IMG/VR virus record: IMGVR_UViG_3300021979_000001
Coordinates: 66,948 to 130,947 of that record
Length of the DNA: 64,000 nucleotides
Source: a virus
Taxonomy: Duplodnaviria; Heunggongvirae; Uroviricota; Caudoviricetes
Direction: 5' to 3' (one strand)
In this document: positions 16,160 through 61,491 of the stretch, piece after piece
Position numbering within the stretch: the stretch's first letter is position 1
How the letters are laid out: each line of letters begins with the position of its first letter
Program-made: the position numbers and the translations under genes
Notes under the pieces: model-generated
Database searches by the model: none
The model's input: the letters and a program-made list of their open reading frames with translations, nothing else
What the model was told of the DNA's origin: nothing

Positions 16160-16708
16160 GTTAATGTTGCCTATAATTTTGCTGTTTTGATGTTGTTCAT
16201 TTGTTAATGACGGGTGAGTTTTCCCCACCAGACATTTTATTTATCTTCGTTAAACAAAGATACCAGTTCTCTGTCATAACAAAGCATCGTAGACTATGAA
16301 TTTGCAGTTAATATCAACAATCACGCTGTATTGATTAAAGTAAAAGCCAAATAAAAATCACTTATTCCGTCTCGATGAATTTGAAATTACTTCATCTAAC
16401 CGACAAAGGTCAATATTTTTGAAAAATATTCCTGTAACCTATTGTTTTTAAAAAGCTAAACGTGATTTTATATAAAAATAAAATGGTGCCCCGGTATTAA
16501 AAATGAAAAATATCCATGTTGGACACAAAATATCCGTATCAGGATGGATCGAATGTGAACACGCGTGATTAGCCGTTTTAATCGCCGTAGGGAGGGTGTT
16601 GATGAATTTGGCTAGGGTGGGTGCTATTTTTATGTAATGCCGCTGTGTGCCCAAAAAAACAGGGTTGGTGTTGATGTTTTAGTGCGATGAACGGTATGAA
16701 TGACAAAT

Positions 16709-16742
16709 AAAAACGGCAGGGTGTTTTGGTCCTGCCGTTTTT
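16709..16742 (-). terminator. Intrinsic terminator
   Basis: AAAAACGGCAGG / CCTGCCGTTTTT. Confidence 0.75.
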
Positions 16743-16760
16743 CATTCTGTTATCAATTTT

Positions 16761-57610: not shown

Positions 57611-58369
57611 ATGAGAAATTTTATCGATATTATAAATGAATATCACGAATGGGAAGAATGGGATAGCTATGAACATAAAGACATAAAAACCCCTTCATTT
57701 CCTGACCCAACAACAAACCCAAATTTTGTTAGATGGTTTGGTAAATCAATCGTTGTTGATCATAAAACAAAAAAACCATTAGTGGTATTTCGTGGAGAAC
57801 ATGGTGATACAAATGGGAATTTCTTATCACGCAGATCAAGTTTAACCTTTAGTTCGTTTCATTCAGCAAATTCATATAGCTTATCACCAAATGATCGTGA
57901 TGATTTATATGCATCCAACCCACATGTATTTCCATGTTATTTAAAAATCGAAAAGCCATTTATTGTGCAATACACTGATCCATATGTCGAATTTAGCGAT
58001 ATGTTGCGAATTGCACCGTTAACGAAAGTGATTGAATTAGCAATCAGATTTGAAGATGGCATTTATAACACCGGTAATTGGATGGATAATTACAGTGATG
58101 ATTATGATTCCGTAGAAGAATTGCTCACACAAAAACCAGAAGAAATCAAAAAACTATACACGTTAGCTTTTGAAATATTGGATGACGCGGAATGTGTTTC
58201 ATTAATTAAACAGGCCGGGTATGATGGGGCAATACATGGGGGATTTGGTGTAGAACATGATGCAGAGTATCGAGTTTTTGATATTCGGCATGTTAAATCA
58301 ATCTTTAATAATGGTTCATTTAATCCATCATCAACAAATATTTCAGAACAACAAAAAGGCGGGGATTAA
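57611..58369 (+). CDS. ADP-ribosyltransferase-fold protein (ART-PolyVal-like, R-S-E type)
   Basis: FVRWFGKS.VVD...PLVVFRG, LTFSS, CYLKIEKP, GYDG, EYRVF; start ATG 57611 (MRNFIDIINE), not 57455. Confidence 0.7.
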   Translation: MRNFIDIINEYHEWEEWDSYEHKDIKTPSFPDPTTNPNFVRWFGKSIVVDHKTKKPLVVFRGEHGDTNGNFLSRRSSLTFSSFHSANSYSLSPNDRDDLYASNPHVFPCYLKIEKPFIVQYTDPYVEFSDMLRIAPLTKVIELAIRFEDGIYNTGNWMDNYSDDYDSVEELLTQKPEEIKKLYTLAFEILDDAECVSLIKQAGYDGAIHGGFGVEHDAEYRVFDIRHVKSIFNNGSFNPSSTNISEQQKGGD

Positions 58370-58380
58370 TCCCGCCTTTT
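58354..58380. terminator. Bidirectional terminator
   Basis: AAAAGGCGGG / CCCGCCTTTT. Confidence 0.75.
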
Positions 58381-58690
58381 ATTTGTTGTAGAAATGAGAA
58401 ATAATGTATTCAATTAATTTTGTTGCTTTTCTTTTACTATTTTCAGATGGTCCACCCATATACACACTTGGGTGATCAAAATGCCCAGCTAATAATGATT
58501 TCATTTCATCTGATTGCAAGAATATCTCAATTGTTAATTGTGTCTGTTTAACGATTAACATTAAATTGTTATCAGAACAAATATCGGAACGTTTGTATTG
58601 ATTAATTTGTTCTTCCCAATAATTGTTACTTACTGGTCCGTGTTGATTTTCATATATCGAACGACATAACATTTCAATCGTATTATTCAT
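58379..58690 (-). CDS. Hypothetical protein
   Basis: Phage-like C-terminus (FDHPSVYMGGPS); start set at MNNTIEML because the upstream extension is repeat-derived. Confidence 0.55.
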   Translation of the reverse strand: MNNTIEMLCRSIYENQHGPVSNNYWEEQINQYKRSDICSDNNLMLIVKQTQLTIEIFLQSDEMKSLLAGHFDHPSVYMGGPSENSKRKATKLIEYIISHFYNK

Positions 58691-58860
58691 GTGTGGTTTT
58701 CTTGTGTTCCTGGTATTCATGTGTGTTTTCCTTGTGTAATACTGACATAGATATTCATTATTATCTCTTTGTGTATCTTCTTGTGTTTTTACGTATTTCT
58801 TTGTGATTCGTTCTGCAATTATCTCTTTGAGATTCTTTCTGTGATTATCTCTTTGTGTAT
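58684..58860. repeat. Iteron-like direct repeats
   Basis: 24-bp near-repeat at 58684 and 58714; ATTATCTCTTTG(TGTAT) at 58760, 58818, 58844. Confidence 0.8.
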
Positions 58861-58994
58861 TTCTGTGTGATTCTTGACACATTTGTTTATTAACAATTTC
58901 CTAATGCTTGTTTAACAAGTTTCTAACACGCTCACATGCGTTCGCTAACTTTTCATTGAAGCATTGTTTATTGTAATACTTATTTTTTAAAATC

Positions 58995-59600
58995 AATTCT
59001 GATAGATTTAACGTCACTTAATCCCCCCTGTCACCAGAATAATAGAAATACATCATAAACCACATTATTAAAAAAATAATGGGTTGATGCATTCCCAAAC
59101 AATTCTGATAACAGGGGGGTTACGTAGATACAAAATCTGATGAGTTTGTAGCCATTCCAGAAGTCACTTAATGCGTTTATAGCATTAGCTGGTGGTTGCC
59201 CGTATCCAGCATGCGCGACCCAACCCCTTGCACGTGATTTGCACCTAATAATGGGATAGTTACCGCAATCATCCTTACTTTTGCTTTTTTTAATGATGCT
59301 GATGCTACCCAGGTTATCACGTTTAACGCAACAACGGTTACGGCCTTTAATAAGGTCCGAGTAAATATACCATGCATTGGAAGGACACGATATATTTGGA
59401 TGGGTATCAAAGTGTCAAGACATTGCCATCCTCGTTATTGTTTAGGGCCTTTTTTCGGGGCAAATCCCCGACGAGCAGCAGTCCCGTGTTACACGGTCCT
59501 TCTCGGTTGCTGTTCTAGCATAACGCCCGGTCCCTGATTCCCGGTGATATTTTTGGGGTGGAAGTGACCCCGACTACTTCCTGAACTGTATGATTAGGAC
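58995..59600 (-). ncRNA. Candidate large structured non-coding RNA (or replication origin)
   Basis: About 600 nt with no credible ORF, more than 10 helices; TTGACT-N16-GATACT at 59628-59601 on the minus strand. Confidence 0.45.
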
Positions 59601-59759
59601 AGTATCATATCATCAATTTTTGAGTCAATATTAATCAGAAAATTGTTGTCAACGATAAAATCAATGATATTTAGTCTTTAAAATAGTTGACAATTATATT
59701 TTTTGGTGAGTTTGAATTTTTTTTATAAATAGTGTCGAACCAAAATTACAGGTGACACT

Positions 59760-60185
59760 ATGAAAATATCAAAAACTGGGGTTGCATTAATTCAAGAATT
59801 TGAAGGACTTGAACTGGAATCATATCAAGATTCGGTTGGTATATGGACTATTGGTTATGGCACTACTCGAAACATTCATGAGGGTATGGTTATCACCGAA
59901 GGACAGGCAACGCAATTTCTCGAAAAAGACGTATCTGAAACCGAACAAGCGGTAAACAACATGACATCTTACCCAATTAATCAAAATCAATTTGATGCCT
60001 TGGTATCATTTGCTTATAATGTGGGCATAACCGCACTGCGTTCTAGCACATTGATGCGCAAACTCAATGCGGGTGATGTTGATGGTGCTGCAAATGAGTT
60101 CCAGCGCTGGGTTAGAGCAGGCGGGAAAGTCCTTCCTGGGCTGGTAAGACGACGAGAAGCCGAACGCGCACTTTTCATTTCTTAA
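59760..60185 (+). CDS. GH24 phage lysozyme (endolysin)
   Basis: EFEG...YQDSVGIWTIGYGTT catalytic E-x8-D-x5-T, FDALVSFAYNVG, GLVRRREAE; TATAAATA at 59724. Confidence 0.95.
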   Translation: MKISKTGVALIQEFEGLELESYQDSVGIWTIGYGTTRNIHEGMVITEGQATQFLEKDVSETEQAVNNMTSYPINQNQFDALVSFAYNVGITALRSSTLMRKLNAGDVDGAANEFQRWVRAGGKVLPGLVRRREAERALFIS

Positions 60186-60234: not shown

Positions 60235-61491
60235 ATGTCTGATCCATTGAAGAACAAAAAATTCTGTGTTCTCCCTTTTATTCATTTTTCTAATCGGCCC
60301 ACTGGAAATATTCGGTTGTGCTGTGAAGCAGAGAGTCCGCATGACTGGTTATTAAATGATGGCAACACCGCCGCCATTGGCCGGGACGATTTCATGGGGG
60401 ACGTTTGGAACTCGGATTATATTAAAGATGTTCGCAAAAAAATGTTTGCTGGTGAATATGTCAAAGAGTGTGAAACCAGATGTTATTTTAATGAATCCGT
60501 GGGCATTATGTCGAAACGGGAACGTGCAAACGAACGATGGTTAACCCCGGATGTCGTTGATAGAGTTGTCAAAGCAGCAAACAATGATATGCATGTTGCC
60601 GAACCGCCCAAATTTATTGATGTTAAACTCGGCAATCTATGTAATTTATCATGTCGTATGTGTTCAGCAGTCAGCAGCACCCGGTGGTTGAATGATGTTA
60701 AAATGATGTCAGATGATCTTCCACCAGAATATGACAAAAGTGTGAAACGTGGTCAGGCAATCACCCGGTGGTGGGATTCAGCAACATTTGAAAAAAACAT
60801 GATGGATATATTACCATATGTTGACGTTATTCAAGCAACGGGTGGCGAACCATTTTTAAATAAAAAACTTTTGGAAATTATAGAGAAAATACCGGATGAA
60901 CAATGCGCAAAAATGTCATTTTGGGTATCATCAAATGTCCAGCATATTGATGACCGGTGGTTCGTTGCCTTATCTCGATTTAAAGATGCCGGTGTAAACG
61001 CCAGTATTGATGCGACGGGCAAAGCATTGGAATATATTCGTCAACATGCCGAATGGGATACCATTGTCGAAAACATTTACCGCCTTGAAGAATGTGGGAC
61101 ATCATTAAAAATATCATATACCCATCAACTCTTTTCATTGGAATATTTGCCATCATTATATGACTTTGCCATATCGCGTCGTTCTGGTAAAAAAAAGATG
61201 ATGGTTCAACCGCATATTCTTCGGTATCCCATCACATATCGTCAATCGATTTTGTGTGATGACGGTCGTAATCATTTCGTTCAAAAATATCGAGATTATT
61301 TGGCATCGCAGAATTTGTTGTCCGATCATGATAGAGAATCGATTGAAGCAATTATCAATGATTTGAACAACGGTCAGCATGACCCAGATACTCTATCCAA
61401 ATCGCAGCACGTCACCCGAACAATGGATACTTATTATAACCGAAATTTTGCAGACGTATTCCCTGAACTTAATCAGTTTTTAAAATGGTGA
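60235..61491 (+). CDS. Radical SAM protein with N-terminal twitch/SPASM-like Cys domain
   Basis: FCVLPF..LCC..C..C, then CNLSCRMC, TGGEPF, ASIDA. Confidence 0.9.
   Translation: MSDPLKNKKFCVLPFIHFSNRPTGNIRLCCEAESPHDWLLNDGNTAAIGRDDFMGDVWNSDYIKDVRKKMFAGEYVKECETRCYFNESVGIMSKRERANERWLTPDVVDRVVKAANNDMHVAEPPKFIDVKLGNLCNLSCRMCSAVSSTRWLNDVKMMSDDLPPEYDKSVKRGQAITRWWDSATFEKNMMDILPYVDVIQATGGEPFLNKKLLEIIEKIPDEQCAKMSFWVSSNVQHIDDRWFVALSRFKDAGVNASIDATGKALEYIRQHAEWDTIVENIYRLEECGTSLKISYTHQLFSLEYLPSLYDFAISRRSGKKKMMVQPHILRYPITYRQSILCDDGRNHFVQKYRDYLASQNLLSDHDRESIEAIINDLNNGQHDPDTLSKSQHVTRTMDTYYNRNFADVFPELNQFLKW

Follow-up and report, generated by a model that had tools for sequence, protein, structure and literature searches.

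We analyzed a 64,000-nucleotide (nt) stretch of DNA (hereafter the window), which corresponds to positions 66948-130947 of a 457,165-bp viral contig (G000) with a GC content of 38% from a T4-like giant phage. Between an orphan open reading frame (ORF) and an endolysin gene, the window carries an element that is very probably a conserved minus-strand gene for a structured RNA. On balance, we also favor the fuller view that window positions 58905-59628 constitute a self-contained gene for a large structured noncoding RNA (ncRNA) that belongs to a new family and acts in trans. Phage and bacterial RNAs that exceed 500 nt and exhibit dense conserved structure are very rare, and the only ones known to us are GOLLD, ROOL, OLE, and HEARO, each of which has prompted its own structural and functional studies. 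An earlier note, prepared from the sequence alone, had proposed a new large structured RNA of ROOL or GOLLD size that is distinct from RNase P RNA, tmRNA, 6S RNA, and group I or group II introns. That proposal is upheld by covariation in at least 12 homologs, by a conserved promoter directed into the element, and by the lack of any Rfam match, and these comparisons indicate that the element is a real feature representing a new RNA class.

Comparative evidence for a structured RNA

The start codon (ATG) of the minus-strand ORF (58882) and that of the endolysin gene (59760) are separated by 877 nt. This gap is the longest gene-free stretch of the window, as had been noted before, and the runner-up spans 532 nt (16229-16760). 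The gap is also GC-richer than its flanks (43-50% versus approximately 30%), again in agreement with the earlier description. No long reading frame opens under translation table 11, under table 4, or when TAG is read as glutamine, and coding via the latter two readings was rejected. The longest stop-to-stop frames of the gap have no match in Pfam or PHROGs. A 77-codon ORF is present on the minus strand of the gap, although it is not kept in the paralogs, and no ORF is common to the four copies of the element that reside in this genome (copies A-D, of which A is the window element).

Evidence for the proposed structure derives from three alignments: a model-fitted alignment of 12 distinct sequences for the 3′ domain (A6), and plain MAFFT alignments of 10 sequences for the middle domain (A8) and of nine sequences for helices P1 and P2 of the 5′ domain (A7). 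Paired cells amount to 89.6% in the 3′ domain (77.8% when shuffled), 91.1% in the middle domain (76.5% when shuffled), and 93.3% in the 5′ domain (77.6% when shuffled). The corresponding covariation scores are 0.238, 0.550, and 0.581, compared to 0.091, 0.257, and 0.291 for the shuffled controls and to values no greater than 0.071, 0.239, and 0.136 for controls with slid partners. For all three domains, none of 500 shuffles attained the observed paired percentage or covariation score. Pairs that have changed on both sides number 12 of 25 in the 3′ domain (6.9 expected), 13 of 19 in the middle domain (6.8 expected), and 5 of 10 in the 5′ domain (3.7 expected), the last being a count that 127 of the 500 shuffles equaled. 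The earlier note had named covariation among homologs as a way to evaluate the element, and base pairs are indeed kept by compensatory substitutions beyond both the shuffled and the slid controls. Overall, approximately 15 predicted helices are shown by these sequence comparisons to be retained through compensatory changes.

Individual helices (Table 1) provide examples of this pattern among the paralogs and among homologs from other contigs. In copy D, P3 pairs as CCAG/CUGG instead of CCGG/CCGG, and P5 is 100% paired in 10 sequences. By eye, the P6 hairpin is retained with a different stem sequence in each homolog, and the long-range partners of P11 change together (UUGC/GCAA in copy A, GGUC/GACC in copies B and D, GGACC/GGUC in copy C, and other pairs in metagenome homologs). 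For P15, which is helix 5 of alignment A6, changes on both sides are seen in 4 of the 7 pairs, with 75% of cells paired. The foot of the terminal hairpin P16 has the form YCUCCCC.../...GGGGGGAR in all 16 folded members of the two subfamilies described below, always with G-U pairing in the minus sense, and the hairpin varies in length from approximately 20 nt to approximately 115 nt. The tail that follows P16 is conserved in copies A-D as well as in G003a, G004a, L141, and L148. Likewise, the P17 motif resides within a hairpin also in G003a, G004a, L141, L148, L155, and L133.

Most of the pairings listed in the earlier note withstood this comparison. The complementary segments CCCCCCTGT and ACAGGGGGG form the foot of the 104-nt hairpin P16 and are kept by covariation. 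The pairings TAATGC/GCATTA, GCTGG/CCAGC with its GCAA loop, AAATATA/TATATTT, CGGGG/CCCCG, and GGGGT/ACCCC are also present and are maintained by covariation in homologs. The CCGTG/CACGG pairing exists, although it lies within a variable insert. Two other proposals did not hold: the 10-bp helix at 59313-59335 and the helix at 59473/59507 that was thought to favor the plus strand have no comparative support and are not conserved. The direct repeat GTCACTTAAT (59013, 59163) is present as described.

The strand of the RNA, which had been considered uncertain, can now be assigned. RNA folding of 58995-59628 yields a z score of -8.2 for the minus strand and -4.1 for the plus strand. The 104-nt hairpin is predicted to have a free energy of -58.9 kcal/mol (z = -9.4) on the minus strand versus -38.8 kcal/mol on the plus strand, because many of its pairs can form as G-U only in the minus sense. 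In a composition-corrected scan of the entire genome for stable folds, this hairpin ranks second among 22,852 windows of 130 nt. For copy A, the sense strand is more stable than the antisense strand by 26 kcal/mol, and the sense fold surpasses the antisense fold in 12 of 12 homologs (GC contents of 39% to 59%) by a mean of 19 kcal/mol. Furthermore, the G-rich 3′ strand of the P16 foot is kept while the 5′ strand drifts between C and U. Such drift would be tolerated only by an RNA or a single strand of the minus sense. On these sequence grounds, the RNA should be read from the minus strand, and we no longer regard the strand as uncertain.

Copies within and outside the genome

The four copies in the 457-kb genome were found with a two-copy nhmmer profile (Table 1). 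They are approximately 55-60% identical, are collinear over approximately 650 nt, and occupy the largest ORF-free gaps of the genome. The largest such gap (G000:415220-416125) holds the sequence blocks of copy A, and ranks 1 and 3 of the genome-wide fold scan fall within it. The hairpin ranked third is likewise long and very stable, carries a T-run, and is located just downstream of copy B (L070:1042-1171 = G000:415241-415370). Copies A and B each lie between divergent genes, and copy C is located behind a gene for a BFD-like ferredoxin. Copy D is located behind an ART-like gene, and the gene on its other side is convergent, so that the RNA cannot be explained as a mere 5′ leader.

A covariance model of the 3′ domain (R1) scores 110.7 bits on copy A and 36-66 bits on homologs outside the genome. 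A degenerate pattern based on the conserved 23-nt hairpin motif of P13 gave 18 loci in IMG/VR, and R1 confirmed full-length 3′ domains at four of these. The scores are 66.5 bits on a 415-kb contig, 48.2 bits on each of two contigs of 240 kb and 79 kb, and 36.3 bits on a 34-kb contig. A four-copy nhmmer profile matches these loci over several hundred nt (E values of 1e-30 to 6e-19), and E values for the metagenome members recovered via the P13 pattern range from 2e-22 to 2e-101. The first exact 27-mer pattern and the first 5′-domain pattern had no match in IMG/VR. Similarly, blastn searches of isolate phages and plasmids with copy A, a member of the second subfamily, and the Microvirga copy described below gave no match.

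Several copies per genome are the rule. According to R1, there are two copies in G003, two in G004, and three in the complete 452.8-kb genome G005. This latter genome also carries two adjacent tRNA genes with the anticodon CUA (L231:14352-14507), which hints at suppression or recoding of TAG.

The RNA is also present in some bacteria. A full-length copy that scores 58.4 bits is carried by the Microvirga sp. VF16 chromosome, and another copy is present on a small M. tunisiensis contig (42.2 bits). The Microvirga copy adjoins an integrase-family ORF and ABC-3C defense genes, and its context is not recognizable as a prophage. Because a copy is held by 1 of 121 sampled genomes from the bacterial family of Microvirga, the RNA appears from sequence surveys to be sporadic cargo in bacteria rather than a core gene.

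A second, more distant group (subfamily 2) comprises contigs in which genes for heme oxygenase, bilin reductase, and ATP-dependent DNA ligase surround the RNA. It resembles the first group in the P12-P14 module, which is almost letter-identical, and in the terminal CUCCCCC/GGGGGAG hairpin that is also common to both. All-against-all BLASTP of the flanking ORFs revealed no conserved protein neighbor, and the ORFs downstream of copies A, B, and C are mutually unrelated. This comparison gave only an Smr-domain gene in three genomes and the gene order noted above (heme oxygenase, bilin reductase, DNA ligase) on the cyanophage-like contigs.

Promoter, predicted transcript, and neighboring genes

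The earlier note described the sequence TTGACT-N16-GATACT as pointing into the element, and this putative sigma-70-type promoter is conserved in GC-rich homologs. Homologs G003a and G003b carry TTGACT-N16-TCTAC(T/A)-GTCCGAC, and G004b carries TTGACG-N16-TCTATA, in each case at a distance to the first helix equal to that in copy A. Taken together, the arrangement can be written as TTGACT-N16-(G/T)(A/C)TAC(T/A)-GTCC. These promoter-bearing homologs have GC contents of 52-55%. The corresponding sequence in copies B and C is TTGACY-N18-TATATT. Retention of a host-type promoter across genomes of such differing base composition (38-58% GC) is good indirect evidence for its transcription.

The conserved position of the promoter would place the start of the RNA near 59594. 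A 3′ end near 58905 is predicted because it is placed past the conserved hairpin P17 and an additional small hairpin. The promoter and RNA unit therefore occupies window positions 58905-59628 on the minus strand, and the RNA extends approximately 70 nt past the left boundary previously proposed.

Table 1. Features of the RNA locus and of its paralogs. Positions are those of the window unless G000 is given.
Feature	Position	Strand	Basis or remark
Copy A (window element)	G000:125908-126645	minus	nhmmer
Copy B	G000:415442-416189	minus	nhmmer
Copy C	G000:198846-199523	plus	nhmmer, E 7e-52
Copy D	G000:305464-306126	plus	nhmmer, E 1.4e-32
Sigma-70-type promoter, TTGACT-N16-GATACT	59601..59628	minus	consensus scan and conservation in homologs
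Structured RNA copy A, predicted transcript of ~690 nt	58905..59594	minus	putative 5′ and 3′ ends
5′ three-way domain	59512..59586	minus	P1 encloses P2 and P3
P1	59583-59586 with 59512-59515	minus	alignment A7
Hairpin P2	59555-59571	minus	alignment A7
P3	59541-59544 with 59527-59530	minus	by-eye inspection of alignment
Variable hairpin	59484-59496	minus	
P5 (GCU/GGC) enclosing P6 (CGGGG/CCCCG), followed by conserved GAAAAAGGCAC	59447..59479	minus	
Middle domain	59363..59431	minus	P7-P9, alignment A8
P7	59426-59431 with 59398-59403	minus	
P8	59419-59422 with 59405-59408	minus	
Hairpin P9	59389-59397 with 59363-59371	minus	
Long-range P11, closing the variable insert and preceded by conserved CAUAACCGUU	59328-59331 with 59228-59231	minus	
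3′ domain core	59161..59221	minus	P12-P14, covariance model R1 and alignment A6
P12	59215-59221 with 59161-59167	minus	encloses P13 and P14
P13, bulged hairpin with GNRA tetraloop cap	59188-59210	minus	
P14, hairpin with UAUAAAC loop	59169-59187	minus	
Hairpin P15, conserved ACUCAGGA in and around loop	59129..59150	minus	
Terminal long hairpin P16, pyrimidine-rich 5′ foot and GGGGGGA 3′ foot	59018..59121	minus	
Conserved single-stranded tail after P16, AAGUGACG ... AUCUAGGAU-like	58996..59022	minus	
3′ hairpin P17, internal GCGAACG ... GUGAGCG	58923..58949	minus	beyond the boundary first proposed
Flanking orphan ORF (ORF167)	58379-58882	minus	diverges from endolysin
Flanking GH24 endolysin	59760-60185	plus	

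An exact-protein look-up with the orphan ORF167 gave no contig on record. The first ~65 codons of this ORF consist of direct DNA repeats (window 58684-58872) that are A-rich on the coding strand and comprise four copies of 29 nt and two copies of 24 nt. The annotated start of the ORF may therefore be wrong, or its repeats may be a DNA-level element. Between this ORF and an ART-like gene, a GC-rich hairpin with T-runs on both strands (window 58354-58380) looks like a bidirectional terminator. On the other side of the RNA, the best relative of the endolysin is 61% identical. The sequence TATAAATA, a T4 late promoter consensus, is located at 59724-59731 on the plus strand, 28 nt ahead of the endolysin ATG. 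Because of this consensus, the endolysin probably belongs to a different temporal class than the diverging RNA.

The nearest sequenced relatives of the phage are Sinorhizobium phage Phosso, Agrobacterium phage Atu_ph07, and two IMG/VR genomes (G001 and G002), whose gp15-like proteins are 37-44% identical. The gene order virion protein-endolysin-gp15 is kept in all four, and no large gap is present there. In the window, a radical-SAM/SPASM gene (60235-61491, plus strand) resides between the endolysin and the gp15-like gene, which are adjacent to each other in Phosso, Atu_ph07, and G001. Elsewhere in the genome, GC skew is extreme (-0.34 to -0.50) at G000:1-20000 and at 450000-457165.

Proposed function and relation to known RNA classes

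It seems reasonable to speculate that host RNA polymerase would transcribe the RNA early, beginning near 59594, and that the RNA would then adopt a compact tertiary fold. Such a fold is suggested by an invariant hairpin with a GNRA cap and by numerous conserved junctions rich in purines, elements from which tetraloop and A-minor contacts are usually built. The RNA might act in trans as a scaffold or as a decoy on host or phage machinery, as proposed for GOLLD and ROOL, and perhaps the several paralogs co-assemble or serve different stages of infection. A more specific version of this hypothesis, which we advance only tentatively, is that giant phages maintain an undescribed class of ornate RNAs of approximately 650-700 nt as a small multigene family, in which 2-4 diverged paralogs with separate early promoters would form hetero-oligomeric assemblies or serve as decoys against host translation rescue or defense. 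If true, hetero-assembly of paralogs or a set of decoys would represent a strategy at the RNA level for which GOLLD and ROOL offer no known precedent.

A weak lead regarding function is a link to translation or ribosome rescue. An Smr-domain gene is located upstream of the RNA on the same strand in three genomes (copy C, G003a, and L148), and SmpB is encoded downstream of copy C. The SmpB-like and Smr-domain ORFs that flank copy C are located at L072:2283-2711 and L072:14-265, and ARAGORN identifies a permuted tmRNA of the two-piece type with the tag ANDNVASNMAVAA at G000:160209-160554. Therefore, the phage carries a small set of ribosome-rescue genes.

Several points weigh against a trans-acting RNA of a new family. 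Neither BLAST nor model R1 finds a copy in Phosso, Atu_ph07, or the two IMG/VR genomes that are the closest relatives. We infer the transcript, its ends, and its abundance from sequence, and our functional proposal is made by analogy. Helices P3, P6, P11, and P17 rest on inspection of alignments rather than on counted pairs, and the full-length consensus is unfinished. Finally, unlike GOLLD and ROOL, which are frequently, although not always, located beside or fused to tRNA genes, the four copies do not adjoin such genes; ARAGORN finds none in the window, and the nearest ones lie at a distance of 5-6 kb from copies C and D. A tRNA island is seen only for G003a, 2 kb downstream.

Among other explanations, it is unlikely but conceivable that each copy marks a replication origin, where the promoter-driven structured transcript would form a persistent RNA-DNA hybrid that primes leading-strand synthesis in the manner of ColE1 RNA II or the T4 R-loops. 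The presence of 2-4 dispersed copies in each giant genome would suit a T4-like phage, since T4 uses several transcript-primed origins. In addition, all four copies reside where GC skew jumps from minus to plus (p values of 0.22, 0.003, 0.06, and 0.02, combined by hand to approximately 5e-4). A run of six G residues is invariant near the RNA 3′ end, and ColE1 RNA II likewise depends on a G-run. Just downstream of copy A, the DNA is AT-rich and contains iteron-like repeats. However, direct repeats are found beside copy A and not beside C or D, and a positive skew jump occurs at only 3 of the 7 copies in G003-G005. Gene orientation switches approximately 130 times in the genome, so that points of divergence are common, and the RNA is not oriented consistently with respect to the skew jump. 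Moreover, approximately 15 covarying helices and a GNRA hairpin far exceed the known needs of a primer RNA.

We consider it quite unlikely that the RNA is a new large ribozyme, such as an RNA-processing enzyme or a selfish self-cleaving element. Large ribozymes typically share its size, its GNRA-capped hairpin, and its abundance of conserved unpaired purines, and the Microvirga genomic island beside an integrase-family gene is suggestive of mobility. However, the RNA has no similarity to any Rfam ribozyme family, and flanking exons, target duplications, and terminal repeats are absent.

More doubtful still is a long cis-acting leader, namely a 5′ untranslated region that controls, or is processed from, the gene that follows (ORF 58379-58882 in the case of copy A). 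Behind each of copies A and B, a small ORF has the same orientation as the RNA, and no U-tract terminator separates the two. The duplex of ~45 bp in P16 would be a potential substrate for RNase III. However, the gene behind copy D is convergent, the ORFs downstream of copies A, B, and C share no relationship, and neighbors differ across homologs. For copy A itself, the gene downstream is the orphan ORF167, the 5′ portion of which consists of DNA repeats.

A lack of any RNA function, with the locus being a decayed foreign cassette, a DNA-level inverted repeat, or a set of missed small protein genes, is hardly credible: the locus is a GC-rich island in an AT-rich genome and has a 77-codon minus-strand ORF, but that ORF is not kept in paralogs, translated frames match nothing in Pfam or PHROGs, and the stem changes are compensatory and strand-asymmetric, which DNA-level decay does not produce.

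We return to the favored interpretation of the element as a trans-acting structured RNA of a new family. The natural paralogs, together with the distant homologs, supply covariation data for structure modeling, and the length of the RNA suits in vitro transcription, chemical probing, and cryo-EM. More generally, the largest "empty" gaps in giant phage genomes can hide RNA genes that are missed by protein-centered annotation. The searchable literature holds no description of this RNA family, although publication beyond that coverage is possible.

A comparison with Rfam had been suggested in the earlier note, and it matched the RNA to no known class. With Rfam 15 at gathering score, the whole window has no match, and at E values up to 10 the region 58800-59800 gives only spurious look-alikes of microRNA precursors on the hairpin. 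At E values up to 0.1, no match was obtained for four homolog loci or for the Microvirga and Bordetella loci, and neither group has a member that matches an Rfam family. The models for RNase P RNA, tmRNA, 6S RNA, group I and group II introns, OLE, and HEARO gave no match. As a positive control, the same scan scores a true GOLLD RNA (RF02032) of this genome at 177.9 bits (E 5e-49). This GOLLD RNA is located at L074:481-934 on the minus strand (G000:352780-353233), directly upstream of genes for tRNA-Met and tRNA-Asn. Because the genome carries both RNAs, the new RNA is not its replacement. No RVT_1 (PF00078) match is found in the 457-kb genome, whereas control genomes gave matches, and therefore the element does not qualify as the RNA of a retron, a DRT (defense-associated reverse transcriptase) system, or a group II intron.

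The new RNA resembles ColE1 RNA II and the primers that form R-loops at T4 origins in being a predicted promoter-driven structured transcript of several hundred nt, in having a G-run near its 3′ part, and in having dispersed copies in a T4-like genome. However, known primer RNAs do not make up conserved families with many covarying helices, and the evidence from skew and iterons fails to generalize. OLE RNA, which we take to be Rfam RF00515, is likewise a highly conserved and highly structured bacterial ncRNA of approximately 600 nt with an unsettled biochemical function. OLE resides on the chromosomes of Bacillota, with genes for its dedicated protein partners adjacent to it, whereas the new RNA is phage-borne and has neither a conserved neighbor nor an Rfam match.

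GOLLD and ROOL are more similar in character. To our knowledge, both occur as single genes. ROOL (RF03087) resembles the new RNA in its length of approximately 600 nt, its carriage by phages and prophages, its complex fold, and its obscure function. However, copy A has no ROOL match at E values up to 10, no member of the new family matches Rfam, and linkage to a tRNA island is absent in this genome. Their hosts also differ, in that ROOL is found in phages of Lactobacillales or rumen bacteria, and the new RNA is found in giant phages related to alphaproteobacterial phages. Like the new RNA, GOLLD is a very large and elaborately structured phage ncRNA of obscure function with no known protein partner. 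The differences are that the GOLLD gathering score of 150 bits is not reached in the window, that no match in sequence or structure exists even at E values up to 10 (58800-59800), and that the copies in this genome are neither fused nor adjacent to tRNA genes. The new RNA also has 2-4 diverged paralogs per genome and a length of approximately 700 nt, versus at least 800 nt for many GOLLD RNAs. GOLLD and ROOL were recently shown to self-assemble into RNA-only cages (bioRxiv 10.1101/2024.12.08.627333), a behavior from which our working model for the new RNA is borrowed. The family described herein appears to fall outside the known classes and resembles GOLLD and ROOL only in kind, and it is set apart by several diverged copies per genome, its own conserved sigma-70-type promoter, a span of 38% to 58% GC among giant phages, and its occasional presence in bacterial islands.

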